DNA of 64,000 nt from Candidatus Poribacteria bacterium (GCA_965198235.1 OZ240248.1:4864001-4928000); one strand, 5' to 3'; shown: positions 13,505-59,226, counted from the first letter of the stretch. The notes: generated from the sequence alone by a model not told the origin. Translations and numbers: made by a program.

Positions 13505-13670
13505 ATCGGGTTGAAATTCACCGAAAACCACTGCGAAACGTAGTGGAGCAGTTTAACCATCAACTCGACTCCGTTATAAATGTTAAAGCACGAGTGTTTT
13601 TGCTTGGGGTTTTTGCTTGGGTGTTTCTGCGGATTTCTTCGATGGTTAACAGATTCCCATAGTTAGAAAA
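13505..13670. repeat. Nested palindromic elements with cargo insertion
   Basis: ACTGC-GAAACGTAGTGGA-GCAGT hairpin followed by a TTTAACCATCAACTCG IR whose right arm is split by TGTTTTTGCTTGGG...GATTTC. Confidence 0.8.
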
Positions 13671-13681
13671 CAGAAAATTAA

Positions 13682-14140
13682 TTATTGGCATCTTCTGGTT
13701 CTACGTCTGCCTCTCCACCCATCGCCAACTGCGTAGACCCAACATAAAATACCTTGAACGGACGCACTGATTTTCAGTTTCCAAGAGGGGCGGTACATCA
13801 GTTTTTCCCCATCGTCGAACGTCCAGATGTGAATTGAATAAGGCTCCTGTGCTTCGGAGTCCTCTACCCTATCTGTTGATGTGTGCTTCTTCACCGCAGG
13901 TTTGAACCGCGTTAAATCACGCCACTCAGTTACCGGCAGTGAATTGAGGTAAAAAATACCAATTGCAGAAGCAAAAATGGCAAAAAGGACAATCGCTTTT
14001 GGAAACTGCCCTAAGTACAATTGACCGAGTCCTGGAAGAATTGCAGACAGGACCATCGCAACGAAAGAACAGGCAGCAGGCTTACCTTCCGCACCTCCAA
14101 AATTGCTGGAGGCGACGCGCGTGTTTGCGGGTTCCACCAT
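13682..14140 (-). CDS. Hypothetical membrane protein
   Basis: LSAILPGLGQLYLGQ motif; 2-3 TM segments. Confidence 0.7.
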   Translation of the reverse strand: MVEPANTRVASSNFGGAEGKPAACSFVAMVLSAILPGLGQLYLGQFPKAIVLFAIFASAIGIFYLNSLPVTEWRDLTRFKPAVKKHTSTDRVEDSEAQEPYSIHIWTFDDGEKLMYRPSWKLKISASVQGILCWVYAVGDGWRGRRRTRRCQ

Positions 14141-14143
14141 TGA

Positions 14144-14512
14144 TTAAGACTCTCCTTGTGCCACAAGATAGACTCCGATACAGATGATCAGAGCACCTAT
14201 CATACGAATCTTAGGTACAGATTCCTTGAACAACATCCAAGAAAACAGGATTGACAGTACATACCCAGAACTTAACATCGGATACGCAATGCTCAGTTTA
14301 ACACGCGACAGGATAATCAGCCAGACGAGCGTTGTGAAGCCGTATATCGCAATCCCACTGAGGATATAAGGGTTCAGGAACGCCTGTACCAATTTGCCCA
14401 TAGCGTCTCGGAGGCTATTGATACGACCGATCGTGTTCATGCCGTGTTTAAACAAAATCTGTCCTATTACCGTTAGTAAAACGTTGAAGAATAACAGTAA
14501 AAAATCTTTCAT
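14144..14512 (-). CDS. Small DMT/EamA-SMR transporter (ArnE/ArnF-like)
   Basis: 4 TM; GQILFKHG, LSIAYP, FKE. Confidence 0.85.
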   Translation of the reverse strand: MKDFLLLFFNVLLTVIGQILFKHGMNTIGRINSLRDAMGKLVQAFLNPYILSGIAIYGFTTLVWLIILSRVKLSIAYPMLSSGYVLSILFSWMLFKESVPKIRMIGALIICIGVYLVAQGES

Positions 14513-14588
14513 GACTTTATTATATCACACTTATACTCTTTTTATTGCAATTTTTATTTAAGGGGTTCATTTCAGAGGCATTCAGTTT

Positions 14589-16823
14589 TCATAGGTTATA
14601 GAGATACGTTACTTTAATGACAATGACACGGTTTTCCAGCTGTAACTCGCGACGGGAGGCTGACCGAATAGGCGCATCGCCCCAAGCCTCGTTATATGCC
14701 ACGAAAAGGTGACTCTTCGGGCTATATTCCCATCCAAATAGAAGACTTAGCAGATATGTCTGATGAATTTCCATAGAAAGTGGGCGTTCCCTACTCGTTT
14801 GTGCGAACATTCGGAGAAACGACTCTCGCGTGAACAAGTAGGTCGCACGCAATGAGCTGACGAAAAACCTACCATCAATTGCCCCTTCCAAATCAAAACT
14901 CTGCGCGTAGCCGCTGTCTAATTCTATGGAGAAATTGCTCTGTGGACGGATAGTGGACTCAAGCGTAAGACTCCGCTGTTTGCCCGCTTGTTGTCGTCCA
15001 AAGTTAAAATAGTCAGCGAAATCCACGCCGATACCGACAGCAATCGGGTTTGTAGCGTCAGTATCAATCGAAAACCCGTATCTGTCAGCCGTGAAGACTT
15101 CTGTGAGCTCAACTTCCCGACTTCGGTCATAGTAGGCAGTAATGTCGTCCAAGAGAATTTCTCTGAAATCCATCCCGACATTTCCGCCAACGCTCCATCT
15201 GAAAAGGTCTTCATCGAAATCAGGCGAGAGAGACAACTTTGGGTTACGTTCTCGCCACGCCGCAAAATACACTGGTGTATAAAGGCTTTGGGAGAGACGA
15301 GCGGTTATACCAGAAAAAAACTGGTGCTTCCCCCAGTGTGGAGAATAGGAACTCCGCATAGAGACACGTTGCCAGCCACGGTTTCGTTCTTTTCGTAGAA
15401 ACCCCGTCTGATTAATTTCAAAGTGGGGCGCGACCCGTTCAAATCCAATGTCGCTGCTCCAGAGATAGTTGCGCTGCGCGAAGTCAATCGTATACGCAAA
15501 GTTATCACTATCTTCGCCTGGATAGAAACTACCAGCGTATTGTCCGGTGAGATGATAAGTTTTTCCCAAGGCAAGGTTCATATCAACGCCACCCACTCGG
15601 CTATGACTCCATTTTTCACTACCGGGCTGTTCCTTGTTCACGAGTAGAATCCCAATGTTTGAACGTTTGAGGATGTCGCGTTTAACACGGATTGCAGAAA
15701 ACCATGCTTCCTCCTTTTCGGATGGTGTACTATCAGAAAATCTAAATTCACCGGTTTGATTTCCCAAAACCCCGATAGAGTAATCACCGACTTTTCCTGT
15801 GAGTTTACCACCCCAGAGGATATTGCCGCGACTCCCGATACGGCGGCTGAACATCAGGTCATAAGGCGTTTCAAAAAAACTGTTTCCTTCAACAAAAAAC
15901 GGACGTTTTTCAGGAAAACGCGTCGGGAATCGGGTCAGATTAATTTCTAATTGGTCTGCTTCAACTTGCGCGAAATCGGGATTAACGGTAACGTTCGCCT
16001 TCAAGGCACTCGTGAGGCTGTATTGCACATCCAAACCTGTTCCGAATTGGCGTGTTAAATTGGTATCGGCGGCACCCATACCCCCACCTAAAAGATAAGG
16101 TAAGATTTCAAAGTTTTTTCCGGTCCCGATGCCTTGAATGCCTACGATGTGCCCTAAATCAGACATCCGCGTGACGACCCCGGCTTGTGTCAACTGTTTC
16201 CATACCGTAACCTCGCTTTTCCGGCGGTTTACCCGCTCCACATCAAACCCCCAGATTTGCGTCGGTTTATCAGTAAACCGAAAGTTTGCGAACGGGATTT
16301 TAAACTCGGCGCACCACCCCAATTCATCAATACTGCTTTCAACCCACCAAATCCCTTTCCAGTTGCTATCGCGTTGGGTGTCCTCATACCGATAATTATC
16401 GCTCTGAACACCGGCTGGGTTTGTAGCGAATTTATAGCCTGTACGATGATCGTGATGTGGGTCAATGAAGAAAGAGATGACTTCCGAGGCATAGAGGTCG
16501 CCGCGTCGCGTCATCCGATTGACAATCTTATTGGGTTCAGCGTCGTAACATCGGAATGCGACGTAGAGATTATGCACATCGTAAGCGATACGGAATTCTG
16601 TGTCATCAGTTGCCGGATGACCGCGTGCCGGTTCGAGTTGAATAAAACCGCTGCGGGGTTCTGCCTGCTGCCATACAGTATCGTCCAGTATCCCGTCAAT
16701 TTGCGGTGGTTCGGCTACGATTCGGTGAGCTTCAACGACATGTTCACCCATGCCTTCTGGGTGCGCAAAAAGGAGTCGTGGATAGGCAATAAATAACAGT
16801 AGAGCAACTACGAGTTTTGGCAT
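14589..16823 (-). CDS. CBM9-like plus DUF5916 outer-membrane protein
   Basis: PQIDGILDD..W, NPDFAQVEAD, PEKRPFF.EG, FSRRIG; aromatic C-terminal strand. Confidence 0.85.
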   Translation of the reverse strand: MPKLVVALLLFIAYPRLLFAHPEGMGEHVVEAHRIVAEPPQIDGILDDTVWQQAEPRSGFIQLEPARGHPATDDTEFRIAYDVHNLYVAFRCYDAEPNKIVNRMTRRGDLYASEVISFFIDPHHDHRTGYKFATNPAGVQSDNYRYEDTQRDSNWKGIWWVESSIDELGWCAEFKIPFANFRFTDKPTQIWGFDVERVNRRKSEVTVWKQLTQAGVVTRMSDLGHIVGIQGIGTGKNFEILPYLLGGGMGAADTNLTRQFGTGLDVQYSLTSALKANVTVNPDFAQVEADQLEINLTRFPTRFPEKRPFFVEGNSFFETPYDLMFSRRIGSRGNILWGGKLTGKVGDYSIGVLGNQTGEFRFSDSTPSEKEEAWFSAIRVKRDILKRSNIGILLVNKEQPGSEKWSHSRVGGVDMNLALGKTYHLTGQYAGSFYPGEDSDNFAYTIDFAQRNYLWSSDIGFERVAPHFEINQTGFLRKERNRGWQRVSMRSSYSPHWGKHQFFSGITARLSQSLYTPVYFAAWRERNPKLSLSPDFDEDLFRWSVGGNVGMDFREILLDDITAYYDRSREVELTEVFTADRYGFSIDTDATNPIAVGIGVDFADYFNFGRQQAGKQRSLTLESTIRPQSNFSIELDSGYAQSFDLEGAIDGRFFVSSLRATYLFTRESFLRMFAQTSRERPLSMEIHQTYLLSLLFGWEYSPKSHLFVAYNEAWGDAPIRSASRRELQLENRVIVIKVTYLYNL

Positions 16824-16829
16824 GCGTTA

Positions 16830-16858
16830 ATTATAGTTGAAATACCGCATGTTGTCAA
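16830..16858 (-). promoter_or_regulatory. Sigma70 promoter, probably leaderless transcript
   Basis: TTGACA-N17-TATAAT-N6-ATG. Confidence 0.75.
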
Positions 16859-17084
16859 GTTTTGCCATTCTCAGTGAGGCTTCCAATGTTATCTTCTCCA
16901 ATCCAACGATAGTGCCGGATGAGACCAATTTGTTGCTTTTTCTTGAAAAAATCGTTAAATTCCTTTAAAATTCTTACAACTTGGTTAGAGCGACAGACTT
17001 AGTTCATTTTAGACATACGTGTATATTGTTAGAATTTCCATCGGCACGTTCTGGTGCGACTTCAACGAAGAAGGATATAGAATA

Positions 17085-17876
17085 ATGGTTGAACTTACAC
17101 GGGAAGACATTGAATTTTTCAGAAATGAGGGGTACTTGGTGAAACGGAACGTCCTGAACCCGGAATTAATGGAGCAGGCACGGGCGAGACTCTGGGATGG
17201 TGCGCCCGAAGGACGCAGACGTGATGATCCTGAAACATGGGTCGGTCCCTTCACACCAGAGGAAGAGAACCCTGACGGAAATAATCATCGACGCGGATTT
17301 CGTTGGAACTTCCGCGAACCCGGTGGCGAAGATTGGATGGTTCAGCTTCTCGCTACCGATCCAAACGTCTGGCGGATGGCAGAGCAATTTTTGGGTGCTG
17401 GGAATTTGGTGCAACCCGACCGCGTGCGCGGTATCTATTGCACCCTACCTTACGGCGATGTCCCGAAGAAATCGATTGGGTGTCATGTGGACGCGCATCC
17501 GTTCCATCTTGGTGCTGTCGGTTATATTGACGATGTGCCGCCGGAAGGTGGTGGGTTTACTGTCTGGCCACAGAGCCATAAAACTTTCTATTACGATTAC
17601 CATTCCCAATACAAAAACGAGCCGACACCGCAATACGACATCGACCGCGAACGTATCAGCAGAGAGCCGGGTGTTGATTGCTACGGTAACGCAGGGGATG
17701 TTGTCTTCTGGCACCATCGCATCGGTCATGCTGCAGGGCATAACTACTCGCAGCAGATCCGGCAAGCCGTGCTATACGATTTTCGGAAAACAGAATTAGA
17801 ACAAACTCAGGAGGAGCCACCAAGCGAGGATATGTGGAGGGATTGGCCCGGCATCAAGGCGTTAGAGTCGGATTAA
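17085..17876 (+). CDS. Phytanoyl-CoA dioxygenase (PhyH) family Fe(II)/2OG oxygenase
   Basis: FFRNEGYLV, HVD, GDVVFWH...H, R; ATG at 17085 follows AAGGA. Confidence 0.85.
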   Translation: MVELTREDIEFFRNEGYLVKRNVLNPELMEQARARLWDGAPEGRRRDDPETWVGPFTPEEENPDGNNHRRGFRWNFREPGGEDWMVQLLATDPNVWRMAEQFLGAGNLVQPDRVRGIYCTLPYGDVPKKSIGCHVDAHPFHLGAVGYIDDVPPEGGGFTVWPQSHKTFYYDYHSQYKNEPTPQYDIDRERISREPGVDCYGNAGDVVFWHHRIGHAAGHNYSQQIRQAVLYDFRKTELEQTQEEPPSEDMWRDWPGIKALESD

Positions 17877-17920
17877 TCTATTGTCTCGTAGGCGCGGTTT
17901 TCAGCCGCGCCAACTCAATT

Positions 17921-18742
17921 CTATCTCAAATCCAGTTCCTTCAAGGTGCTTGCCATCATGTCGTGAGCGATTTGTGCCTTCTCCATCCGCATGTGGGGGA
18001 ACGTTTCTACGGATATATACTTATCGTAACCGACTTTCCCTAAACTCTCTGCAAAGGTCCGAAAATCCAATTCATCTCCCTCCTCACCCGGAATCAGGAA
18101 GGTGCTGTAGGGATACATGCCTGTCACGCCTTTGACATGGCAATGTGTAGTGAGCGGTCCCAGTTTTTCGGTAACTTCGGCGATGTCTTCACCGAGATGA
18201 TAAAAATTGGTAATGTCATTAAGGGACCTTAGTGCGTCAGATCCGACGTGTTCAATCAGAAGCGGAACTTTTGAAGAGGCATCGATTGTCGTTGCTTCGT
18301 GATTATGAATGTTCATCGTGATGCCGAGTTCCTCGGCGCGTCGGCAGATTGGCTTCAGCACATCAACGAGGAGCCGCCATGCGAATGCGTCGCCTTTCTC
18401 GCCGCCATACCCGGTGAGAAAATTGACACCACCCGCCCCAAGCGCGACTGCTACGTCTTGAAGAAGCGCGTAATGGTCAACTGCACCTTGCTGGTCTTCT
18501 GCCGCCAACTGGTATAAGCCTTTTCCCGTAAACGGATTAATGACAGAGACCTTTAACCCACTGTCGGTTACCATCGTTTTGACCTCTTTGAGCAAGCCAT
18601 CGGTAACTTCGCCAGAGGGGATATGCGCTTCTGGTCCGCACATCATCTCGATTGCGTCGTAGCCTGCATCGGCGAGAATCGTGATAACTTCTTGTAGAGG
18701 GATGTCCTTCATCCCGCCAGCGTGATAAGAGATACCAATCAC
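17921..18742 (-). CDS. Sugar phosphate isomerase/epimerase (xylose isomerase-like TIM barrel)
   Basis: GYDAIE, HNHE, HCHVKG, GY...ISVE. Confidence 0.8.
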   Translation of the reverse strand: MIGISYHAGGMKDIPLQEVITILADAGYDAIEMMCGPEAHIPSGEVTDGLLKEVKTMVTDSGLKVSVINPFTGKGLYQLAAEDQQGAVDHYALLQDVAVALGAGGVNFLTGYGGEKGDAFAWRLLVDVLKPICRRAEELGITMNIHNHEATTIDASSKVPLLIEHVGSDALRSLNDITNFYHLGEDIAEVTEKLGPLTTHCHVKGVTGMYPYSTFLIPGEEGDELDFRTFAESLGKVGYDKYISVETFPHMRMEKAQIAHDMMASTLKELDLR

Positions 18743-18782
18743 TGTTAACTCCTTTCGACTTTCGTTCTTTGGTCGTTCATTT

Positions 18783-20066
18783 TTACCTTTTTGTTCTTCC
18801 TGTTATGTCCCATAGGCGCACAGTCCCATAACCGTTTACACTTGCGAGTGTAATGCTATTCGGAGCGAATGTCAAGGCATCAATACTCATATCACGCTCA
18901 GTAATTACAGAGACTAAGCGTCGGCTTGCCAGATCCCAAATGAGAATCTTACCCCACGAACTCCCACTCGCGAGCGTTTTTCCATCTGGTGAAAACGCCA
19001 ATGCTGTTACACTCCCTTCTGGTGCCGGCATAGCTGCTATTTGTCTGCTGGTGTCAACATCCCATAACCGAATCTCTCCAAAGGGGACAGCCCACAACCT
19101 AACTTCAGAGTTATAGCCACCACTCGCCAGGGTGTTACCATCTGGAGAGAACGCCAATGACTTTACTTCGTGCGTAGGCGACGTGAGGAATGAGAGGGAA
19201 CGGGTACCCTGCCTACTTAGCACGATCGGCGGTCTAAAGTAGATATAGCGATACTCTCCCCAACGCCAGTGGGTGTTGATTTTGTCCCCTGGTGCGGTTT
19301 CAAAATGAAACGCCGCAAATTGCATGCGTTTCAAAGCCTTTGTGCCAACCACTTGTTGATGTAAAAGCCGATCTTGAACGAGGTCTAATGTCCAAACTGA
19401 ACCGCTATGTCCTACAGTAATAACGTTGGCACTATCCTGCGTAAATGCAGTCGTTGTATCATCCGATGTGTTGGCTTGAGGTGTTAAAGCATCCTTGCTT
19501 TTACTTGATATATTAGGGATCTTTTTTCCAAGAAATGGGTGCTGGGCAGGGTGTGGAGGCCTTCGACCCGGTGAGGTAAGATCCCACACGGCAAATTGGT
19601 AGTTGCCGCGCGAGGAGTCACGCTCAATCACACCGGCGACAGTTTTTCCATCTGGATAGAACGCTAACGCCCTGACCTGATTCATATCCGTCTCAAGGGT
19701 TAACAGATGCTCTCCGGTTTCTACATCCCACACACGAGCTTCCAAACGCCAGTCTGTCGCTACCGTTTTTCCATTGTGAGAGAAAGCCAAGACAGGCCCA
19801 TACCCACCATAAGATGAGTGGCTGTATCCTTTGAGGGTGGATATATGTGTGTACTCTTGCGCATACTTCTTTGGCAGATATGGGGGTGCCATCTCTAAGA
19901 GATTCGGTAGAATGACCTTTATCCCAAAGACGGTAAGGAACCAATCAAACACCGCGGTCAACACAACTAACGCAACAATCCATTTCTTTCTTTTCAAGGT
20001 TTGCCCGGGCAGCCTGTCGCGCTTGCACCACCTGATGCGTTCTCGGAAGGATCGTCTCAGTTTCAT
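18783..20066 (-). CDS. WD40-repeat protein with N-terminal TM anchor
   Basis: LAFSPDG.TLASG...WD repeats; TM at about aa 29-50. Confidence 0.85.
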   Translation of the reverse strand: MKLRRSFRERIRWCKRDRLPGQTLKRKKWIVALVVLTAVFDWFLTVFGIKVILPNLLEMAPPYLPKKYAQEYTHISTLKGYSHSSYGGYGPVLAFSHNGKTVATDWRLEARVWDVETGEHLLTLETDMNQVRALAFYPDGKTVAGVIERDSSRGNYQFAVWDLTSPGRRPPHPAQHPFLGKKIPNISSKSKDALTPQANTSDDTTTAFTQDSANVITVGHSGSVWTLDLVQDRLLHQQVVGTKALKRMQFAAFHFETAPGDKINTHWRWGEYRYIYFRPPIVLSRQGTRSLSFLTSPTHEVKSLAFSPDGNTLASGGYNSEVRLWAVPFGEIRLWDVDTSRQIAAMPAPEGSVTALAFSPDGKTLASGSSWGKILIWDLASRRLVSVITERDMSIDALTFAPNSITLASVNGYGTVRLWDITGRTKR

Positions 20067-20110
20067 CGCTTCCTCCTTTTAAGGGGTCGCGTACACTCTG
20101 CTGTTTACTC

Positions 20111-20140
20111 TTATAGAGACTCCCCCCTTTAAAAAGATAG
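20111..20140 (-). promoter_or_regulatory. Candidate ECF-type promoter, copy 3
   Basis: CTATCTTTTT-N12-CTCTATAA about 45 nt upstream of the ATG at 20066. Confidence 0.4.
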
Positions 20141-20274
20141 GAAAAAGCAACTTTTGCGGCAGAAAAAATAAAAAGCCGAATCCCTTTGCAGGTTCAGCAA
20201 TTATATTGCACCTCCTACTTTCAAAAGAATTTGAACGTTAGATTCATTCAGATTCGATTTGTCTTCCGGTGAAT

Positions 20275-21168: not shown

Positions 21169-21179
21169 TTTTTAAACTA

Positions 21180-21508
21180 TTTTTTTAATTATGGGCCTCT
21201 GGGGCACCGCTCCAAATGTAAAGCATTCTCACTGCGAAGCAAAATTATGCCATTTAAGGAAACCTAATTTCATTTCGCGGTGGTCTCTGGTTAATTCGAG
21301 AACCCACCTTAGATGATGAGAGGTTACTGACTTAACCAAAAACCATCGTGAAACGAAGTGGAACGATGCCCAGGAACCAATAGTTAAAAAAGTTTCGGGC
21401 AGGTTTTTGATTCAGTCCACTGGGTTGGAGCCGTTTGTGGTTTCCAGTTTTGACCATCAACTTACACATTGATAAAATTGTTAAGGAAACCCGAGTTGAT
21501 AGTCAAAG
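21180..21508. repeat. Back-to-back hairpin elements plus an IR element
   Basis: 21180-21297 (-, doubly nested insert); 21340-21391 (+, empty CATCGT-GAAACGAAGTGGA-ACGATG); 21448-21508 TTTGACCATCAACT...AGTTGATAGTCAAA. Confidence 0.85.
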
Positions 21509-21510
21509 TA

Positions 21511-22865: not shown

Positions 22866-22874
22866 TTGACGTTC

Positions 22875-23380: not shown

Positions 23381-23460
23381 GCGTGATGTCCGGATTGGAA
23401 CGCGAGACTTCCTTGATCTGCCCTTTTATATTGTAGAAACGCTTCTGCGCGCAACACGCA

Positions 23461-23894: not shown

Positions 23895-23924
23895 TTGACA
23901 CCGATATATGCTGTATGCTATACT
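23895..23924 (+). promoter_or_regulatory. Sigma70 promoter
   Basis: TTGACA-N18-TATACT with extended -10 TG. Confidence 0.7.
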
Positions 23925-45423: not shown

Positions 45424-47694
45424 TTACTTCATTATCAACATTTTTCGCGTTGCCGTGAAATCGCCAGTGGTGAGTGTATAGAAATAGATGCCACTCGCCA
45501 CCGGTTCACTGAGTTCATTTTTGCCATCCCAATACACCGCACGACTCCGAGACCGATAAAGTCCTGCGGACTGATGTCCGAGATTCAACGTCCGAACCAA
45601 AGTGCCACTCACCCCATAGATACGCAATGTGACTTCGGCGGGTTCGGACAGCTGATACGGTATCCACGTCTCTGGATTGAACGGGTTTGGGTAGTTGGCA
45701 AGCAATTGTGTTTCACGCGGAGTCATCAACGCTAAAAGGCGTTCGAGATTGGCGATACCTTGTTGAAATGCCAGCGAACCATCATCTTCAATCTGTGCCT
45801 GTGCTATCCATCCCTGTATCATCGCTGGATCTAATCTCATATCGCCTATTGCAAGAGCAGAAGGTGCCGCAGAAATCCCACTGAGTTCACCGAGATGCTG
45901 TGCAACAAGGACGAGGTCTGAGATATTACGCCTCCCATCTTTGTTTACATCAGTTCGCGCGTTCGTCGGTCTGGGCTTCCCGAGGTCTTGTCCTACCAGA
46001 ATCAAATCCAGAATGTTTGTCTGTCCATCTCTATTCACATCCCATGCGGGTGTTTTTATTACAATTTTTCTCTCGGGTGGGTTAATCGTATAGTCCGTAT
46101 CTTGTGCGAAACCGAAAAAACCGCTAAAGGCCCCATGCCCCCGATTGTCAACAGCGACCAATAACACGTTTGGTCCCTGCTTCAGCGTGACAGGAAACGC
46201 ATCTTGGTAATCGCCGGCACCGCGAAGCACAGGGTTATAGTGAACCAATTCACCGTTGAGCCAGACTTTTACCTCATCATCGCTCCCGACGAGCATTATT
46301 GTATCCTGCTTGCGCGGAGAATTCAACGTGACAGAGCCGTAGACGACATGGTCATATATCTCAGAACCTGCTCCCCAGCCGAGGGCATCTGTCATTTCGT
46401 TGAGGTTATCCCCACCCGTAGGGGAGAGTCGGTGAGCCCGCCACTTACCGTCTCCGACAGGCTTCCCCTCAGTTGCCCCAAAGGTGGCGACTTTCACCTC
46501 CGTTGCGGCACCACCACTCGCTTTTGCTAACAAATCTGTGTGGTCAAGACGTGATCCTGGGACGATCACCCATAACCACGGTCCTTCTATTTTTGGACCG
46601 GCTTGCGGGAAAGCGGAGTTAATGAAATTCGAGTGCGAGATAGATGTCTTCTCGGAAAATCTTTCAAAACTCGATACATCTGCTATTGCATTGTCGTTGA
46701 GCCCCATCCATGTCAAGTTGGGCAAAGATGCAAGCGAGGATACGTCTGTTATCACATTCTCATTAAGGTCTAACCATGTCAAGTTATTTAGTTGCGCAAG
46801 CGGGGATACTTCCGATATTGTGTTATCGCCCAGTTCTACCCATGTCAGGTTGCTTAACCCTTCAAGAGGCGATAGATCGGATACTTCATTATGTTTAAGA
46901 CTTAGGCGGGTCAAGCCAGTTAAGCCCGTCAACGCTGAGAGGTCTGAGATTTCGTTGCCAACAAGATATAATTCTTTCAAACTTGTTGCACGCGCCAAAG
47001 GGGAGATATCTGATATTTCGCCGCCGCAAACATTTATCTGTCTCAGCTTCGGTAAATCTGCCAAGGCGGAAAGGTTTATTATGGGAGTGCCCCAAGAGTG
47101 ATAATTCTGCAGATTGATTAATCCCGCGAGGGGAGACAGATCTGCCAGCGGATTCTCGGTCAGTGCTATCCATTCGAGTTTTATTAAACCCGCGAGGGGG
47201 GATAAATCGTCTATAGCGTTATGACCGAGATTTGTCCCTCTTAGGTTGATAAGATCTCTGAGTGGGGATAGATCGGATATCAAGTTATGCGGAATATGTA
47301 ACCCATCTAAGTTGATTAAACCTTTAATCGGTGATATATCAGATATTGCATTATCTCCCAATTCTATGACGCGCAGCCTAATCAACCCCGCGAGGGGTGA
47401 TATGTCGGATATCAAATTGTGGTTAAGCCTGAGATCTTCTAAATTGCTTGAGGCTTCAAGTCCTGTCAAATTGCTGATGCTTCTGCCACTTGCATTAAGG
47501 CGGGTTAACCTCTGCATCTCAGTCACTGTAACTCGGGCGTTTGGTGCTTTACCGAGTGCTTCCGCAATTGCGGCACGCAGGTTTGCGTCGGGGATGTTAA
47601 CGGTTTGTGCGGAGGTTGAAAACGGTGTTAAAAAAAGAACCGCGCAAAGTACGAGCGTGCAAACGAAAATGTGTTGTGTCTTGGCTAATTGCAT
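45424..47694 (-). CDS. Paralog: secreted LRR - beta-sandwich - dockerin - CTD protein
   Basis: Same architecture as 37810-39924 with more LRRs. Confidence 0.88.
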   Translation of the reverse strand: MQLAKTQHIFVCTLVLCAVLFLTPFSTSAQTVNIPDANLRAAIAEALGKAPNARVTVTEMQRLTRLNASGRSISNLTGLEASSNLEDLRLNHNLISDISPLAGLIRLRVIELGDNAISDISPIKGLINLDGLHIPHNLISDLSPLRDLINLRGTNLGHNAIDDLSPLAGLIKLEWIALTENPLADLSPLAGLINLQNYHSWGTPIINLSALADLPKLRQINVCGGEISDISPLARATSLKELYLVGNEISDLSALTGLTGLTRLSLKHNEVSDLSPLEGLSNLTWVELGDNTISEVSPLAQLNNLTWLDLNENVITDVSSLASLPNLTWMGLNDNAIADVSSFERFSEKTSISHSNFINSAFPQAGPKIEGPWLWVIVPGSRLDHTDLLAKASGGAATEVKVATFGATEGKPVGDGKWRAHRLSPTGGDNLNEMTDALGWGAGSEIYDHVVYGSVTLNSPRKQDTIMLVGSDDEVKVWLNGELVHYNPVLRGAGDYQDAFPVTLKQGPNVLLVAVDNRGHGAFSGFFGFAQDTDYTINPPERKIVIKTPAWDVNRDGQTNILDLILVGQDLGKPRPTNARTDVNKDGRRNISDLVLVAQHLGELSGISAAPSALAIGDMRLDPAMIQGWIAQAQIEDDGSLAFQQGIANLERLLALMTPRETQLLANYPNPFNPETWIPYQLSEPAEVTLRIYGVSGTLVRTLNLGHQSAGLYRSRSRAVYWDGKNELSEPVASGIYFYTLTTGDFTATRKMLIMK

Positions 47695-47841
47695 TCAGGT
47701 TTATCTCCTTTTCTACTGAGGGTACACTTCATCAGTACTCTGTTTCAACACTAAAAGTGGATGGGATTTTAATGAGTTCTTTTAACATAAGATAACTTAA
47801 GATATGGGTTAAGGTCAACATCTTTTATTATTGTTGTTTTA

Positions 47842-48393
47842 AACGTGAGCTTGATAAAAAGTCTTGTAGGTGTTTTTGCTTGGGTGTTTCCCCCAGGTTG
47901 AACGGGAATCAAGTAAAACGTGGATAGAAAAGACACCGATCAAGTTCAGTAGGAAACCTGAAGCCACTAAAGAACGAGTGAAACCCAACGCTTTTTACTT
48001 CCAACACGATGCGTCTGTTGGGTTTCGCTATATCACTCTCTATCAACGATTCGCAGAAAGGCGTAATTTCCTGTATAAACGCAAGGGGTTTACCGCTCAA
48101 CCCAACCTACGGAAACCATATTCAGATTTTTAATTATCAAACTCACATTTTTAACGTGGGTTCGACATAAGAAATTGCTTCATCATGTAGGTTCAAACGA
48201 AAGTGAGACACAACACCAAAACGCATACTGCGGGAGTATATCTGTCATCAAATCGGCGATAGATGTAATACGTCGTGTCGAATTTCTCTAAATCTTTAAG
48301 TCGAACTCACGTTATTAAAGACACAATTTTTAGGCGAAACGTTACATCACCTGAAAAAAAGGATTTTATCAGATTTTTTATCGAACTCACGTT
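47842..48393. mobile_element. Cluster of MITE-like elements with AACGTGAGTTCGA-type TIRs
   Basis: Pairs 47842-47857/48134-48149 and 48153-48166/48300-48313; lone end at 48378-48393; no transposase. Confidence 0.7.
47866..48110. repeat. REP doublet (GTAGGTTGGGTTGA / GAAACCCAAC) nested in a MITE, left arm interrupted
   Basis: GTAGG[cargo]GGTTGA ... GAAACCCAAC..GTTGGGTTTC ... TCAACCCAACCTAC. Confidence 0.75.
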
Positions 48394-49356: not shown

Positions 49357-49381
49357 ATCTGTAGAAGCGCGTACACACTTT

Positions 49382-51115: not shown

Positions 51116-51129
51116 CCTTGTAAATCCTC

Positions 51130-51296
51130 AAACCCAGTCGAGAATTAACCAGAAACCTGCCCGAAACGTTTCTCTAATTATGGGACTCCGGGCATCGCTC
51201 CACTCCGTTTCGCGATGGTTTTCGGCACAATTCACACTGGAACTTTGATTTACTGATTACTGATTGCTATTCTAAGATTTTAGCCCCAGCGGGGCG
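51130..51296. repeat. Hairpin-element cluster at the clpB breakpoint
   Basis: (-) CATCGC-GAAACGGAGTGGA-GCGATG-CCCGGAGTCCCATAATTAG; TTACTGA repeats; GCCCC-AGC-GGGGC hairpin. Confidence 0.75.
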
Positions 51297-53328: not shown

Positions 53329-53483
53329 TTTAATGGCTGTAGGGCAAGATTTCCGTGCCTCACCTCTGTCTTATTCCATTCTGTGGGCGAGGTTTCCCAA
53401 CCTCGCCCGCGAGCGTTTGACAAAATATTTACATACCCGGAGTATCTTCTTGACGCGAAAATAGCCAATAGGAGGAACTGATA

Positions 53484-53747
53484 ATGCTTAAACACATCAT
53501 AGATCCCGAAGTTGAAGAATACGATGATGTCTACGATGATCATGAATACCTCGCAGCCCAAGAGATGCAGCAGCAGGAGGGCATGCTCTTGAAACAGGGC
53601 AATGAATTCAAAGTCTCTGTCTGGCTAACACCTGAAGATGCTGAGGTTGTGATAACACTTGCTGAGGAACGCGGCATCCCAGCGGGTAAACTTATTGAGG
53701 AATGGATTCTTGAGCGTATTGATGAAGCGTTAGACATGGAAACCTAA
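53484..53747 (+). CDS. Small protein with CopG/RHH-like C-terminus (antitoxin-like)
   Basis: AGGAGG RBS; VSVWL.PED......LAEERGIP...LI.EWI.ER. Confidence 0.6.
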   Translation: MLKHIIDPEVEEYDDVYDDHEYLAAQEMQQQEGMLLKQGNEFKVSVWLTPEDAEVVITLAEERGIPAGKLIEEWILERIDEALDMET

Positions 53748-53772
53748 CCTTTTACAGAGGGAGGAATCAACA

Positions 53773-54024
53773 ATGAAACACTCAAATTGGACAGAAGCCG
53801 ACTCACGCAACGCCAAGCGTATCTGGGCAGAATACCAGGAACAGCACGATATTACCGAACGAATTGGACAGACAGCCGGTATTGATCCGAAAAGCGGCCG
53901 GATTTGGTTCGGCGATTCTGCTATAGAGATTGTCGAATGTCGACGCGCCGAAGGATTAACTTCTCCACTTTTCTTTGAACGGGTCGGCTTTAAAACCTAT
54001 TTTCGGAAGGGTGGGCGGAGGTGA
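53773..54024 (+). CDS. Hypothetical protein coupled to an aspartic protease gene
   Basis: GGAGG RBS; IDPKSG.IWFG, FERVG motifs; GTGA overlap with the next gene. Confidence 0.7.
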   Translation: MKHSNWTEADSRNAKRIWAEYQEQHDITERIGQTAGIDPKSGRIWFGDSAIEIVECRRAEGLTSPLFFERVGFKTYFRKGGRR

Positions 54025-54131
54025 TTCACGGAACAGTATCGACTTCGCGCGTCCCAACAATCACAGTCGCAATCGCTGGGCAAGAATGGACAACGACTAT
54101 TGATACAGGCTTCAATGGGGATATGGAATAG
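54021..54131 (+). pseudogene. Truncated clan AA (retropepsin-like) aspartic protease
   Basis: MIHGTV...IDTGFNGDME*; the stop is created at the start of the duplicated 80-bp block. Confidence 0.75.
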
Positions 54132-54147
54132 CCAATAGGAGGAACCG

Positions 54148-54342
54148 ATGATGCTTAAACACATCATAGATCCCGAAGTTGAAGAATACGAGGATGTCTA
54201 CGATGACGATGAAAAAGCGGCTCAAGAGGGATACCTGCGAGTCGTTGATGAATCTCAGGAAGACTACTTGTATCCTGAATTTTATTTCATTTTTGTTAAA
54301 CTACCTCGCAAAGCACAGGAGACAGTCGTAGCGACAGGCTAA
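54148..54342 (+). CDS. Chimeric small ORF
   Basis: N-terminus copied from the 53484 gene; unrelated C-terminus DEKAAQEGYLRVVDESQEDYLYP. Confidence 0.55.
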   Translation: MMLKHIIDPEVEEYEDVYDDDEKAAQEGYLRVVDESQEDYLYPEFYFIFVKLPRKAQETVVATG

Positions 54343-54368
54343 GTATTCGGTAACTCGACAAACTCTCC

Positions 54369-54397
54369 TTGACAATTCACTTCATTCAAGGTATAAT
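54369..54397 (+). promoter_or_regulatory. Consensus sigma70 promoter of trpA
   Basis: TTGACA-N17-TATAAT. Confidence 0.85.
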
Positions 54398-54439
54398 TGA
54401 GAAAACATATTAAGAGAAAGCCGGAACTCAATTATATCC

Positions 54440-55240
54440 ATGAATCGAATTGACAAAAAATTTCAAGAACTCCGAGACGAAGGTGCCAAGGCGTTTATGC
54501 CATACCTCTGTGCCGGAGATCCAACCCCCGAACTTACCTCCAAACTCCTCCTTACACTTGAGGAGGCAGGTGCAGACCTCATCGAACTCGGCGTGCCCTT
54601 TTCCGATCCGATTGCAGACGGACCCACCATCCAACGTGCGAGTGAACGCGCACTCACGCATCACATTTCACTCCAACAGATCCTTGAGATGGTCGCGACC
54701 GTCCGCAAACAGACGGACATCCCTATTGCGCTCATGAGTTACTATAACCCGATCTTTCGGATGGGGGAGGACGCATTTTGCAAGGCTGCACAAGACGCAG
54801 GAGTCGACGGTGTCATCGTCCCGGATATGCCACCTGAGCAGGCACAATCGCTCCTTGAAATCGCACCGAACTATAACCTCGCGACTATTTTTCTCGTCGC
54901 GCCGACAAGCCCATCTGAACGGATGCAATTGATTGCGTCCGTCAGCACTGGATTCGTTTATTGTGTTTCAGTAACGGGTGTAACGGGTGCGCGGGCGATG
55001 TTGTCGGACGAAATCGCGCCGATGATTGCAGAACTGCGAAAACACACGGACAAACCGGTTAGCGTCGGTTTCGGTGTGTCAACACCGGATCAGGCAAGTC
55101 AGGTCGCGCAGATCGCTGATGGCGTGATTGTGGGGAGTGCTATCATTAATGTCATTGAGGAGCATATTAATGACGAAGCGAAATTGCTCACTGCGGTGAA
55201 GCAATTTGCGTTAGATTTGGCTGCAGGGGTAAAACTGTAA
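54440..55240 (+). CDS. trpA: Tryptophan synthase alpha chain
   Basis: ELGVPFSDPIADGPTIQ, YYNPI, FLVAPTS, GVTGAR, VGFGVS, DGVIVGSA. Confidence 0.97.
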   Translation: MNRIDKKFQELRDEGAKAFMPYLCAGDPTPELTSKLLLTLEEAGADLIELGVPFSDPIADGPTIQRASERALTHHISLQQILEMVATVRKQTDIPIALMSYYNPIFRMGEDAFCKAAQDAGVDGVIVPDMPPEQAQSLLEIAPNYNLATIFLVAPTSPSERMQLIASVSTGFVYCVSVTGVTGARAMLSDEIAPMIAELRKHTDKPVSVGFGVSTPDQASQVAQIADGVIVGSAIINVIEEHINDEAKLLTAVKQFALDLAAGVKL

Positions 55241-55277
55241 AGAATCTCCCGAATTTAACAGATGGAGGATTCAATAC

Positions 55278-55883
55278 ATGGCTTATAGCAACTTCACCTT
55301 AGAAACAGTAAGAGAAGCATTTCAACTTGAAACACTTCAGTCTGTAGGCATTTTTTCCGAAATAGAGCGAGTTGAACCGAGTGTGGAACTTACCAAAGCG
55401 TTAGCCAAAAAGGTACCCTTAGCCGTCGCGATAGGCACAGAGAAGGCGAAGTCGGAGATGATAGTCGCCGATATACTCGTTGAACTCCGGGAGCACTTTG
55501 AGCATCGCATCAGCCTCTTTTCGGGCATTGATTTCAATGTTGATACCGAAAATGACTTGACGGGTGTGTGCGATTTTTTGGTGAGCCTGTCGCCAGAACA
55601 GTATTATTTAGAGGCACCAGTCATTATTCTTGTTGAAGCGAAAAAGGATGATCTGACAACCGGACTTGGACAGTGCGCGGCAGACATGGTCGCCGCCCAA
55701 CGCTTTAATATCGAGAAAGGGAACGATATACCGTGTGTTTATGGGGCTACCACAACTGGGATAAATTGGCTCTTCCTCAAATTGGAAGGGAAGCGACTTC
55801 ACATTGACATGTCTGCTTACATGCTTGAGCGATGTGACAAAATTCTCGGCATTCTCGCAAGCATGGTATCACAAAAAGTATGA
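55278..55883 (+). CDS. Hypothetical PD-(D/E)XK-fold-like protein
   Basis: MAYSNFTL, EKAKSE, LTGVCDF, VEAK....GLGQC.A.M.AAQ, YGATTTG..W.F. Confidence 0.65.
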   Translation: MAYSNFTLETVREAFQLETLQSVGIFSEIERVEPSVELTKALAKKVPLAVAIGTEKAKSEMIVADILVELREHFEHRISLFSGIDFNVDTENDLTGVCDFLVSLSPEQYYLEAPVIILVEAKKDDLTTGLGQCAADMVAAQRFNIEKGNDIPCVYGATTTGINWLFLKLEGKRLHIDMSAYMLERCDKILGILASMVSQKV

Positions 55884-55964
55884 ACACACGACTTAGGGAA
55901 AAGACTACTTCTCGTACCCGCGTTAATCTGTATAATCCGCGTAATCCGAGATTCAGACAATTAA

Positions 55965-56879
55965 CTACATACCGCGCTTGATGCCGAATTCCGCCTCAAA
56001 CGCCTCCCAAATATGTTCCGGGATGTCAGCCGTCGCTGCTTCATATCCGTCTTCTACCTGCGCTTTATCCGCGGGACCGAACATCACAACACCGTCTATG
56101 GGGGCAGCGAGACAAAACTGCATCGCCAGATGACGGATGTTGACCTCGCGTTCCTGACACCATTTCCACATCGTGTATGCCTTCGCCTCAATGTCGAAAG
56201 GTGCGTCAGGATTACGTCGGCGTTCGTCTTCAACTTTCGGTTCTGCTCCGGTTAGACTTCCCATGCCTAATGGACTCGCGAGGATAATGCCGACATCGTG
56301 TTGGCGTGCCTGCGGTAAGGTTGTCTCAGACGCAGATTGGGATAGCAGCGTATAATCTAAGAAAGTAAGGATAACGTCGATATGCCCCGTTTCGATGAGT
56401 TCTTTGTGGAATTCATGGGAGCGAACACCAGCACCGATATGTCGAATATAGCCTTCCGCTTTCATCTCTAACAGTGTGTCCAAGGCACGTCCCGGTGCCA
56501 GTACACTCTCCATATCGATTGGATCATGGATGAGCACAGAATCAAGGTAATCCGTGCGGAGGCTTTTGAGGCTGTTTGTGACGCTCCATCGCGTGCCTTC
56601 TGCGGAGAAATCTTTCCGGCGTTCTGGATGGGTGCCTACCTTCGCTTGCAAATAGACCTTTTCTCTCAATCCATCAGAGAGTGCTTCTCCCCAGAGATGT
56701 TCCGCGTGCCCCGGATAGGTGTCGATATAGTTGATACCGAGTTCGATGCCGCGACGGATTGCCCCAATAACTTCGGCATCCTGTTTCTGCCACATCCACG
56801 CCGCGCCGAGAGCGAGCGCGTTCGGTCGCATCTCAGTACGTCCCATCCGTCGAGTTTCTAATTTTGTGGTGGTTTCCAT
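55965..56879 (-). CDS. Aldo/keto reductase
   Basis: RRMGRT, GINYIDT, SLKSLRTDYLD..LIHD, EG.IRHIG, SPLGMG.L. Confidence 0.9.
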   Translation of the reverse strand: METTTKLETRRMGRTEMRPNALALGAAWMWQKQDAEVIGAIRRGIELGINYIDTYPGHAEHLWGEALSDGLREKVYLQAKVGTHPERRKDFSAEGTRWSVTNSLKSLRTDYLDSVLIHDPIDMESVLAPGRALDTLLEMKAEGYIRHIGAGVRSHEFHKELIETGHIDVILTFLDYTLLSQSASETTLPQARQHDVGIILASPLGMGSLTGAEPKVEDERRRNPDAPFDIEAKAYTMWKWCQEREVNIRHLAMQFCLAAPIDGVVMFGPADKAQVEDGYEAATADIPEHIWEAFEAEFGIKRGM

Positions 56880-56892
56880 AATTGTCCTATGG

Positions 56893-56921
56893 GTTACGGC
56901 ACGACGGAGCGTGCCTACTAC
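56893..56921 (-). repeat. GTAG-type REP overlapping the upstream stop codon
   Basis: Reverse strand GTAGTAGGCACG-CTCCGT-CGTGCCGTAAC. Confidence 0.7.
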
Positions 56922-57517
56922 CTTGCGAGTGCTCGTTTTAACTTGTGTGTGGATTCGGCGAGTGACTCTTGCAGATACGGATACGGGAAACCACCCCACC
57001 GATCAGGCGGCGGCTCGTCCGCTTGCTCAATTTTCAGGTTCACAAAAATGGGTCCAGTTTCATTCCATATCTTCGAGAGTGCTGCATCAAGCGCGTTTGA
57101 ATCGTTAAATTCATAAACCTGCTCAAAACCAACACCTTTCGCAATCGTGGTCCAACTGAAACCTGAGTTGCCGGCAGGCACCGGTTGATTGCCCGTGACT
57201 TCGTAGGTGCCGTTGTCACAGACGAAAAGCAGATAGTTAGGTGGTGGTGTGTTCAGAGCGGTAATCGTCGCCAATGTACCTAAGCACATCAACATGCTGC
57301 CGTCCCCGTTGAGCACAATCACCTTTTTATCGGGTTTGGCGAGCGCGATGCCGAGTGCAAAGTCGGCGGCGTGTCCCATCGCACTTCCGACGGAAGCGTA
57401 ATCCAACGGATGTGTTGATATTTTGCCCCACGGAACGGTAGTTCCCATTGTCGTAACGACAACTTCGTCTGTACGTTGGTTTGCGATAAGTTGTAGACAT
57501 TCTTCCTTGATGAGCAT
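56918..57517 (-). CDS. TPP-binding subunit (sulfopyruvate/phosphonopyruvate decarboxylase beta-like)
   Basis: MGHA...ALGIAL, GDGS.LM.LG.L.T, DNGTYEVTGNQP. Confidence 0.8.
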   Translation of the reverse strand: MLIKEECLQLIANQRTDEVVVTTMGTTVPWGKISTHPLDYASVGSAMGHAADFALGIALAKPDKKVIVLNGDGSMLMCLGTLATITALNTPPPNYLLFVCDNGTYEVTGNQPVPAGNSGFSWTTIAKGVGFEQVYEFNDSNALDAALSKIWNETGPIFVNLKIEQADEPPPDRWGGFPYPYLQESLAESTHKLKRALAR

Positions 57518-57540
57518 AGTTTTCCCCAGTTTGTTTGAGA

Positions 57541-59040
57541 TTATTTTTCTTCTTCTTTCGGCAGGAACTTGATGTGTGGTGGGGTCTTCAACGCAGTCGT
57601 CATGATTTGAATGTGGTGCGCGAATTCCGTCTCGATCTCCATTCCATCAATGCCGCCTCCCCAGATAGCAAACGTCCGATAATTGAGCCTGCCTTCCGCA
57701 TCTGGAACGAGGATAACCGGCAAAAGAGGATTTTCCGATGCATTGCGATCAACAGTTATGTTTGTATCTTGTGCTTCGTGATTGGTGAGTCCAATGAGCG
57801 CAACACCAAGTGTGTCTATATCGCTTGGATCTGTCCCCCAACTCCATATCCACCCCTGCTTTCTGTCCTCTCCATAAGCACCATTCAAGTGTGGGATACC
57901 TGTGACAATGGCGTAATCCGTGGGGAGATTATCATCAATATGGATATGGTGTTCGATCCACGGATTATCTCCATAGATGAACGTAGTTGATGTTAACTGG
58001 CGAGTCTCACCCTGAATGTTCCACTCAGGCACAATCCGTTGGACGATAGAGCGGATGGCACCATCGGCGAGAATTCGGACGTAGTTCCCTTCAGTAGGTA
58101 GTGGAATCATTTCCTGTTTTTCTTTATGCCACACGGCAATTCCACCACAACCTATTAGACCTTCTGAATGGTTTAGCGCAACCATTTGGGGTGTTTCAGA
58201 TTTGAGAAGTGCGTTCAGCGATAAGCCAATCGATTGAACTACGTCCAACTGTCCTTCTGTTGTAGCTTCCTGCTCAAGACCGGTTTCAATATTGTGTGAT
58301 TTTCGGATAAAGTAGATTTCTTGATTCTCGAGGTCGCGGACGATCCACTGTTGCTCAGGTTGCTCTATCTCTACTTGGACCTGTTGGGAGAGGGTAACGC
58401 CGTTGTTCTCAAAATGGTGTCTGAGTTCTGGTGAGAGCGGTCTCCCGTAATCTAATTCGGGCTGAAACATCGTATCTACACTGAACAATTCTGCTCGTTT
58501 CTTACCATAAGCGATGAAGGCACCGTTCGGCTTTAATAAATACGCAATCAGATTTGATTCCATTGCCGCCACGGCGTTGAGTTCAGGAAAAATAGCGGCG
58601 CGCGTCTGTTTATTGATATCCAGTGTTAACGTCGCCTTGACGTTCGGATCATAGAGAATGGAAATCTCTTTTGTCTCTTCCGGCTCTAAATCTAACAGAA
58701 AGCAGAGCTGATCGCGTTCACCGTCATAGTCCAAGTCATCTGCTTGTGCTGGAATCATTACTTCTCGCGGGGCTTTCCCGGTAACAACGGAATAGGCTTT
58801 GAAGGTGAAATCGGGATTCACTTTTCGGAGTTGCGTTCCCGTTAGCACGATAGGCACCTTTTTCCGCTGGATAGGTAATGTATTTTGGATGGAGAGACGG
58901 ATTTTGCTAATTTTCTGATTACCGCCGGGCATCGTACAGGCATTGAGCATCAACAGAGTGCCTAAAATAAGCGACAGGCAGATTGTTAAAGCCGGTGTTA
59001 TTGTATGTGCCTGAGTGTTGTTTTGCTGATGTATGACCAA
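57541..59040 (-). CDS. DUF4861-like lipoprotein
   Basis: Lipobox-like LNAC; P.QADDLDYDG..D.L.F; ES...AY; YGKK; G.GG. Confidence 0.6.
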   Translation of the reverse strand: MVIHQQNNTQAHTITPALTICLSLILGTLLMLNACTMPGGNQKISKIRLSIQNTLPIQRKKVPIVLTGTQLRKVNPDFTFKAYSVVTGKAPREVMIPAQADDLDYDGERDQLCFLLDLEPEETKEISILYDPNVKATLTLDINKQTRAAIFPELNAVAAMESNLIAYLLKPNGAFIAYGKKRAELFSVDTMFQPELDYGRPLSPELRHHFENNGVTLSQQVQVEIEQPEQQWIVRDLENQEIYFIRKSHNIETGLEQEATTEGQLDVVQSIGLSLNALLKSETPQMVALNHSEGLIGCGGIAVWHKEKQEMIPLPTEGNYVRILADGAIRSIVQRIVPEWNIQGETRQLTSTTFIYGDNPWIEHHIHIDDNLPTDYAIVTGIPHLNGAYGEDRKQGWIWSWGTDPSDIDTLGVALIGLTNHEAQDTNITVDRNASENPLLPVILVPDAEGRLNYRTFAIWGGGIDGMEIETEFAHHIQIMTTALKTPPHIKFLPKEEEK

Positions 59041-59059
59041 TTGTTTTTCCTTTTTTTAG

Positions 59060-59226
59060 TTATCAGTCGCCAGCAGTCAGCCGACAGCCGTGGGCTTCTC
59101 CGCCGATAGCCAATAGTGTCGGGAATCGGAGCGTTTTTGCTTGGGTATTTCTGTGGATTTCCCTGCGGATTTCCCCCTCCTACAGAACAGCCGACAGCTG
59201 ATGGTTTCCGACAGCCAATCTGCCAT
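59060..59226. repeat. Heptamer arrays flanking a REP with cargo insertion
   Basis: GCCGAYA-type repeats; GTCGGGAATCGGAG[CGTTTTTGCTTGGG...GATTTCC]CCCTCCTAC at 59118-59183. Confidence 0.8.

Follow-up and report, generated by a model that had tools for sequence, protein, structure and literature searches.

How does a single sequence of about 20 nucleotides come to interrupt several unrelated repeats in one bacterial chromosome? The question is raised by a stretch of DNA from Candidatus Poribacteria bacterium (GCA_965198235.1, OZ240248.1:4864001-4928000; hereafter the window, meaning the whole 64,000 nt analyzed), in which a preliminary description had reported the same short module inside three palindromic hosts, at sites a, b and c. 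We followed this module through the window, its source genome (G000, contigs C1 and C2) and the phylum. The module inserts next to a defined target, obeys an internal grammar, is copied unit by unit, is restricted to one lineage and turns over quickly at its sites. It behaves as a mobile DNA element would, and would rank among the smallest known.

We named the units of the module A (GTTTTTGCTTGGG), B (GTTTTTGATAGGG), C (TGCGGATTTC), D (TGCGTATTGCTTGGG), E (TGCGTATTGATAGGG) and F (TGTTTC, with the variants TATTTC and CGTTTC). The sites and their hosts are as follows, in coordinates of the whole 64,000-nt window.

8426-8481, strand not assigned: empty relative of host a
10259-10283, minus strand: empty relative of host c
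13552-13567, plus strand: left arm of host a, a long hairpin repeat, TTTAACCATCAACTCG
13591-13595, plus strand: right arm of host a, portion 5' of the insert, CGAGT
13596-13640, plus strand: module array of site a, A A F C plus pyrimidine tail TTC (A 13596-13608, A 13609-13621, F as TGTTTC 13622-13627, C as TGCGGATTTC 13628-13637, TTC 13638-13640)
13641-13651, plus strand: right arm of host a, portion 3' of the insert, GATGGTTAACA
21448-21508, strand not assigned: empty, diverged relative of host a
47866-47871, plus strand: arm of host b 5' of the insert, GTAGGT
47872-47894, plus strand: minimal module of site b, A F plus CCCC (A 47872-47884, F 47885-47890, CCCC 47891-47894)
48097-48110, plus strand: intact partner arm of host b, TCAACCCAACCTAC
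59118-59132, plus strand: 5' portion of host c, GTCGGGAATCGGAGC
59133-59177, plus strand: module array of site c, A f c (cc) C plus CCCC (A 59133-59145, TATTTC 59146-59151, TGTGGATTTC 59152-59161, CC 59162-59163, TGCGGATTTC 59164-59173)
59174-59183, plus strand: 3' portion of host c, CCCCTCCTAC, whose first Cs can be assigned to the insert tail or the host alike

The three insertions were confirmed: each carries GTTTTTGCTTGGG followed by TGTTTC (TATTTC at site c), with or without extra units, and the empty relatives of hosts a and c and the intact partner arm of host b are present where they had been reported. The array of site a is bounded by CGAGT and GATGGTTAA, and 13 empty paralogues read GAGT-T-GATGG where the filled site reads GAGT[array TTC]GATGG. 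Empty copies of host c read GGAG(T/A)TCCC..TCCTAC, and heptamer repeats adjoin site c. An RNA-library contig spans 47842-48122, including the module of site b; this metatranscriptome contig is deeper than its surroundings, and DNA carry-over is possible. Host b itself is a 250-nt repeat whose arm words have about 117 copies genome-wide.

The 13-mer A has 4 exact copies in the window and 256 in the genome (5.17 Mb in two contigs, 96% complete), and its 12-mers are the commonest of that genome, with 260 copies. A reversed-pattern control gave no match in any genome of the two distribution scans described below. We parsed arrays of at least two units from seeds of A or B with at most one mismatch, and 295 seeds yielded 248 arrays. 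The minimal form, of 19 nt, accounts for 136 of them (AF 119, BF 17), and the longest reach about 190 nt. Together with its tail, the minimal module is GTTTTTGCTTGGGTGTTTC plus three pyrimidines, or about 22 nt (a 19-nt core plus 3).

Arrays follow a two-state grammar. From the GGG state the next unit is A or B (131 times) or F (259 times); from the TTTC state the array ends (239 of 248 arrays), or a C unit (157 times) or a D or E unit (53 times) is added, D and E returning the array to the GGG state. These transitions mean that each unit closes with GGG or TTTC, the bases standing before the next one. Units of class A are nearly uniform, with 244 exact copies among 271 in the ten commonest variants listed. 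Among 62 adjacent same-class pairs containing a rare variant, 10 carry the same variant in both units, and one such side-by-side variant has just two occurrences in the genome. Part of the stutter is therefore local duplication, and the repeated sub-units and variable 3' length first seen in the window are a genome-wide property.

To define hosts, array flanks were grouped by single-linkage clustering, which placed the 248 arrays in 114 flank families, the largest with 17, 15 and 14 members. The same cargo thus sits in far more unrelated hosts than the three first reported. At least one empty paralogous host exists for 88 of the 248 arrays. For example, empty GGGG-CG-ACATG corresponds to filled GGGG[AF TTCA]ACATG, empty GGAGGG-CG-GATCT to filled GGAGGG[AF TTCA]GATCT, and empty GGCGAGGT-T-AGAAACCTCGCC to filled GGT[..CCCT]AGAAACC.

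The preliminary description had suggested looking for filled and empty orthologous sites, and true pairs were found, some of them in single-copy genes. We located 119 module sites of other species in 113 loci; for 79, both flanks are syntenic in the source genome, and the core is kept there in just 9 of these 79 intervals, which shows fast turnover. In one module-only pair (pair 109), a repeat copy is empty in the source genome (GGAGGG-AG-GCTCTTGAG) and filled in the other species (GGAGGG[AF CTCA]GCTCTTGAG). At two orthologous filled sites (pairs 27 and 57) the module is unchanged while the flanks differ by about 12%.

The module also enters genes. Thirty-two of the 248 arrays lie deep within open frames of at least 150 codons, in both orientations, and several gene-borne arrays leave a long frame open, their antisense reading giving segments such as ETPKQKP or GKSAEETPNQKPQAKTPSKN. 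At C1:5063802, 27 of 29 genus relatives are empty (GAGAGT-T/C-GCGTTCG); the filled alleles are those of the source genome (AF+TCC, +21), G018 (AF+CCCC) and G004 (a longer diverged array, +48). The three filled species are separated, with starred support, in a local tree of 3.3 kb, so that at least three changes would be needed, either repeated gain or gain followed by exact loss. At C1:2450172 and C1:1020848 all five relatives are empty, and the net gain is +15 at each. At C1:990806 the module lies within host c (GTCGGGAATCGGAG..CCCTCCTAC), which is here an in-frame insertion, about 42 nt long, within an open frame of 984 codons (C1:990780-990830). One relative carries this insert as an empty copy, and four relatives are without it.

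We then read the junctions, using one array per flank family (n=114). The 5' flank is G-rich: G occupies position -2 in 107 families and position -3 in 86 (with A in 24), and position -1 holds T in 72 and G in 38. The 5' junction is indeed fixed, as had been proposed; its wording as a G^TT site did not stand, since empty copies read G-T-T for T-type targets only and others read GGG-CG or GGG-AG, and the real rule is RRG[T/G]. On the other side, pyrimidines fill the first three positions beyond ...TTTC in 105, 103 and 102 of 114, and the commonest base at +4 is A (51). In the four gene cases, the empty allele already has the G-rich 5' flank, which therefore belongs to the target; the pyrimidine tail is new and therefore belongs to the insert. 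Comparisons between paralogues give a net gain with its mode at +21, mostly 19-23, with two cases of +13 and one of +18; it corresponds to about 22-23 nt added minus 1-2 target bases lost or changed.

Neither inverted ends nor a target duplication appeared at any junction read, in paralogue, syntenic or single-copy-gene comparisons, in agreement with the earlier view that this is not DDE transposition. Hairpin DNA, also put forward as the host, is a tendency rather than a rule: exact stems of at least 7 bp span 13% of arrays, or 9% when counted by family, compared with 2.4-2.9% of control sites, and insertions also occur in ordinary coding sequence. We also considered the T-run of the module as a terminator behind hairpins and rejected it, because upstream hairpins ending at the junction are no more frequent in arrays (3.2%) than in controls (3.3%).

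Some arrays carry cargo. A 45-nt hairpin element (stem GGATTTAGTCT/AGACTAAATCC) lies exactly at the module centre, GTTTTTGC|...|GGTGTTTC, in 10 copies (one truncated) distributed over at least six host types, and a further 7 copies hold inverted self-insertions at the same point. This composite cannot have arisen anew in each of six contexts; arrays therefore travel as units defined by their ends. The presence of nested cargo in at least six host types likewise means that existing copies serve as the source. This, together with the many unit variants, does not agree with the fixed short template first envisaged. Within the source genome, no longer master sharing the left end of the module was found in two or more copies, except for the hairpin-cargo form and the inverted self-insertions. 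The 45-nt element (AATGTAATACAAGGAATGGATTTAGTCTATTCCCAGACTAAATCC) has stuttered sub-units of its own and 4 copies outside the module; examples are at C1:753130-753190, 895400-895470 and 3011207.

Distribution was investigated in two scans with the 19-mer. A first draw, allowing one mismatch, found the module in all 24 genomes sampled from the genus and in none of 16 belonging to three other families of its order. The other scan covered 176 genomes across the phylum, and here 62 of 64 other genus genomes carried the module, with 0 to 195 copies: G024 has 195, G014 153, G006 142 and G018 more than 130, and at the lower end, in closed genomes, G161 and G167 have 0, G169 has 2 and G162 has 3. Sister genera of the same family gave 1-5 copies each in 7 of 47 genomes, and other families gave single one-mismatch matches in 3 of 64. 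Its sequence is conserved across species with about 25% divergence between their genes. A cluster of modules in one sister-genus genome (G101) was considered as a transferred island and rejected, the region being ordinary chromosome with 65-80% identity to the source genome.

Matching contigs in the named collection are almost all metagenome-assembled genomes (MAGs) of Candidatus or uncultured Poribacteria, from many projects; about 4 chance 19-mer matches are expected there (2 x 596e9 / 4^19). Two matching records titled "uncultured bacterium" resemble the source genome. A match in a Pyrinomonadales MAG (L103) was rejected as a genuine copy, because it has no likeness to the source genome and an atypical flank and looks like chance. 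Viral contigs gave 1 exact match. Sequencing runs from two studies contain the region, with module words at very high depth, and DNA contigs stop at the module (e.g., 47400-47871), as they do at repeat words. Presence in 62 of 64 genus genomes, together with its rarity or absence in the other Poribacteria searched, shows that the module is not an adapter or assembly artefact.

The hairpin host also occurs empty, with 23 copies in G161 (0 modules) and 42 in G162 (3 modules). A second abundant repeat has 4-19 matches in low-module genomes (control 0-10) versus 263 in G024, and these parallel counts hint that several small repeats expand together.

What could move the module? As first noted, the window encodes no candidate enzyme; Rfam families had no match anywhere in it either. 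The reverse transcriptase (RT)-like or primase-like activity initially suggested found no support in gene content. RVT_1 had no match in the source genome or in 27 of 65 genus genomes, among them high-copy closed ones (G024, G014, G006 and G018 belong to the 27), and zero-copy G167 has two RVT_1 matches. Prim-Pol gave 0 matches in the source genome and did match in control genomes. A search for Y2 transposases, those of IS91-type rolling-circle elements, returned 0 matches in the source genome and likewise 0 in control genomes. Coupling to an HUH enzyme fared no better, as Y1 and module counts are uncorrelated (Spearman rho -0.02, p 0.88, n=65 genus genomes). The 195-copy genome G024 has a single weak Y1 match, holding a stop codon; zero-copy G161 has four to five Y1 genes; and eight genomes with at least 100 copies have 0-1 Y1 match.

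The preliminary description had suggested looking for a master copy beside, among others, an RT, primase-polymerase or RAYT/HUH gene. No other longer master was found in two or more copies, and the flanks of the RAYT genes hold other repeats. The source genome has six Y1 genes, three of IS200/IS605 type and three RAYT-like (C1:606300-607860, 3853150-3854700 and 1898170-1899720). The latter are flanked by repetitive extragenic palindromic (REP) hairpins, GCACTCCGCTGGAGTGC or GCACCCCTACGGGGTGC followed by TATGTCTATAGAAAA, and one adjoins five tandem REP units of about 100 nt each. We also compared the DNA of the source genome with itself, and the long multi-copy repeats found are mainly TnpB-only elements, plus IS3-type. 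The ends of the TnpB-only elements were examined as a source of the module and discarded, their sequences being unrelated to it. About 20 places in C1, for instance C1:230856-232330, 239745-240997 and 4380178-4382025, hold such elements (OrfB_IS605 plus Cas12f1-like TNB) of several subfamilies in many copies, together with two full IS605-like copies with TnpA and IS3-type integrase genes; one TnpB copy carries a module (C1:2576406).

On balance, we lean towards reading the module as a very small mobile element, non-autonomous, that spreads by the copying of existing copies and whose arrays then grow by slippage. New copies would be made from existing genomic copies by a process that carries along whatever lies between the fixed ends (5' GTTTTTG..., 3' ...TRTTTC-YYY). 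Copies would be placed after RRG[T/G], a short G-rich target, frequently where other repeats form loops or arms and also in genes, at a cost of one or two or more target bases on the 3' side, and the array would lengthen by slippage during or after insertion. A dedicated sequence-specific factor acting in trans would do the moving. It is also conceivable, if rather unlikely, that propagation proceeds without any known transposase or RT, a 3' end in RGG or RGT being extended by slippage-prone copying of units out of existing arrays, each unit closing with the primer for its successor, with an unrecognised sequence-specific polymerase or nuclease system restricted to the genus as its agent. Such a system might be what moves other tiny elements as well, namely the 45-nt hairpin element, the 42-nt host c and a 41-nt element by which two near-identical 40 kb segments differ.

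Several observations weigh against a mobile element of this kind. The RVT_1, Prim-Pol and Y1 searches found no enzyme that moves the module, and neither Y1 nor RT genes co-vary with its copy number. The 3' junction is fuzzy, with 1 to about 7 target bases lost and a variable tail (CCC, TTC, CTC, TCC and others), and this fits repair better than clean strand transfer. By itself the module does not fold (minimum free energy 0 to -2.1 kcal/mol), which leaves nothing for an HUH enzyme to grip, and three of four module folds were no better than shuffles. Strand counts along the chromosome (133 plus, 112 minus, from bins) give no sign of a lagging-strand bias; orientation is mixed in every bin, and cumulative GC skew, lacking a clear minimum or maximum, is uninformative. 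No longer, gene-bearing version with the left end of the module was found, and no module-only polymorphism separates the two copies of a 40 kb segment held on C1 and C2.

The main rival dispenses with a dedicated enzyme; we judge it to be improbable. At a stalled fork or break, often at a hairpin, a DNA end would be freed; the nascent ..GGG or ..GGT end would re-anneal at GGG|GTTTTTG of an existing array, copy it, slip and return with a small loss. Such microhomology-mediated template switching accounts for the junctions and the missing enzyme: the 5' flank RRG[T/G] matches what stands before internal units, target bases disappear at a variable 3' junction, the stutter includes side-by-side rare variants, bridging stems are in moderate excess, and no RT, Prim-Pol or co-varying Y1 gene was found. 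It does not account for the single conserved sequence. A microhomology of 2-3 nt fits tens of thousands of sites, yet one sequence is always copied; that sequence is conserved among species with about 25% gene divergence, arrays end in ..TTTC in 239 of 248 cases, and there are genomes with hairpin hosts but without modules. Less probable again is the model of the preliminary description, in which an RT, telomerase-like enzyme or primase-polymerase, possibly following an HUH nick, extends a 3' end in hairpin DNA by writing the module from one fixed short template and stutters by realignment. The two-state grammar, with each unit ending in the primer of the next, the constant 5' start with variable length, and the lack of inverted ends and target duplication speak for this model. 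However, the 96%-complete, two-contig source genome has no RVT_1 or Prim-Pol match, 27 of 65 genus genomes (including G024, G014 and G006) are without an RVT_1 match and zero-copy G167 has two, Y1 counts do not follow copy number, and one short template cannot supply nested cargo and many unit variants. Writing from a fixed template would now need an unrecognised polymerase.

The module could instead have a function, for instance as a site bound by protein or RNA or as a regulatory signal, and owe its maintenance and spread to selection and gene conversion; it would then not be selfish DNA. Its unchanged sequence in the two orthologous filled pairs with about 12% flank divergence, the high homogeneity of its units and the RNA-library contig over site b are consistent with this. 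We nevertheless give a functional motif little credence, as the module lands within genes in both orientations, is absent from 2 of 64 genus genomes and nearly so from others, turns over fast between sites and has no Rfam match in the window. An adapter, primer or misassembly is ruled out for practical purposes: the module occurs in 62 of the 64 assemblies from other species and in named MAGs produced by many projects, lies in frame in conserved genes and supplies high-depth words in runs from two studies.

We compared the module, still read as a small mobile element, with known systems. By their reported features, the nearest described ones appear to be the small dispersed repeats (SDRs) of Nostoc. 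SDR1-8 of Nostoc and relatives, described by Elhai and colleagues in 2008, are reportedly units of about 20-27 nt in hundreds of copies; they are said to be embedded in heptamer arrays, small transposons and their own copies, within one lineage, and filled/empty comparisons are said to point to recent mobility with no known enzyme. The module resembles them in size and dispersal (19 nt plus 3 pyrimidines at minimum, commonest 12-mer of its genome), nesting (114 flank families, 7 inverted self-insertions, heptamer repeats at site c), recent mobility (filled versus empty orthologous sites), restriction to one lineage and lack of a known enzyme. It differs in its host, Poribacteria, which lies outside the described SDR host range (Nostocaceae), in having no fold of its own, and in its strict two-state grammar, G-rich target and frequent in-frame gene insertions. 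SDRs are named in PMC3116915, and a citing paper, PMC5861425, describes the findings of Elhai et al. Against that background, the novelty lies in the phylum and in several features: stutter grammar, target rule, in-frame gene insertions, measured losses at the junction, and RT and HUH tests that came out negative.

Other comparisons are more distant. REP/REPIN elements are moved by RAYT (Y1 HUH) enzymes (Bertels and Rainey 2011, PMC3116915). Like them, the module is short, non-autonomous and present in hundreds of copies; the source genome has REP-like hairpins and three RAYT-like genes, and some REP relatives host the module. Unlike them, the module is not palindromic, does not flank RAYT genes and has a copy number independent of Y1. 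Elements of the IS200/IS605 family have no inverted ends or target duplication, use a short specific target and insert into single-stranded targets, e.g., hairpins. The module shares these traits, hairpin targets as a tendency, and its genome holds many TnpB-only copies and three TnpA genes, but it lacks subterminal hairpins, and the ends of the TnpB elements are unrelated to it. Where that family uses a seamless target of 4-5 nt, the 5' flank RRG[T/G] of the module is strong, yet 1 to about 7 target bases are lost or changed; the expectation of a cognate Y1 enzyme failed (rho -0.02, n=65). The IS200/IS605 family and its palindrome-associated miniature derivatives are treated in PMC6006769.

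Miniature inverted-repeat transposable elements of DDE type differ by their terminal inverted repeats and target site duplications, which the module lacks. RT-templated writing (retron, group II intron, diversity-generating retroelement or telomerase-like) would require an RT gene, for which the source genome and 27 of 65 genus genomes gave no RVT_1 match, and Prim-Pol writing a gene without a match in the source genome. Rickettsia palindromic elements, described by Ogata and colleagues in Science in 2000, are said to be 100-150 nt long and to insert in frame into protein-coding genes. The module also inserts in frame and adds a peptide segment, but it is 19-22 nt and unstructured. Bacterial interspersed mosaic elements (BIMEs) of E. 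coli and BOX elements of pneumococci join small conserved motifs and hairpin units in variable numbers. The module likewise combines with hairpin units in variable number; it differs in being a single module in more than 100 unrelated contexts, genes included, with orthologous empty sites. In telomerase-type addition, the end of one repeat primes the next by realignment. Each module unit similarly ends in bases that would prime the next, a likeness in manner of working only: module sites are internal, there are several unit types plus cargo, and the source genome has no RT match.

To our knowledge, how repeats of about 20 nt move has been an open question since their first description in cyanobacteria, and we know of no enzyme or intermediate. 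Among the matches listed, the Poribacteria literature on repeats and transposition has no title or abstract opening on such elements. On paper the module is a tractable case, with 65 genomes of one genus, several of them closed, spanning 0-195 copies, and dozens of exact filled/empty pairs, some in single-copy genes. Its target rule is clear, and its internal grammar constrains the chemistry. Through it, sponge symbionts remodel proteins by in-frame segments of 5-20 codons. The module is also a strong confounder for the assembly and binning of Poribacteria MAGs.

Further observations concern the surroundings of the module and other repeats. The intergenic interval 59041-59231 of the window is hypervariable across the genus: it measures 27 nt in the two closest relatives, contains different repeats over 50-337 nt in others, and here consists of tandem heptamer-like repeats, host c and the module. 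Contig C2 (43.9 kb) is over its whole length a 99.3-100% identical copy of a 40 kb segment of C1 (775767-815774). Besides many 1-nt indels, two larger ones, both associated with repeats, separate the copies: a 41-nt small element (..CCTTAAATGGCATAATTTGTCTTTGCTTTACAT..) occurs at C1:789087 but not at C2:13487, and a 230-nt segment with a two-module repeat occurs at C2:16419-16648 but not in C1. Overlapping 12-mers with about 57 copies each (..GTTTCAATCTCGTAATCGAGATGCTTTTCGTTTCAAG..) form a set that resembles a CRISPR repeat.

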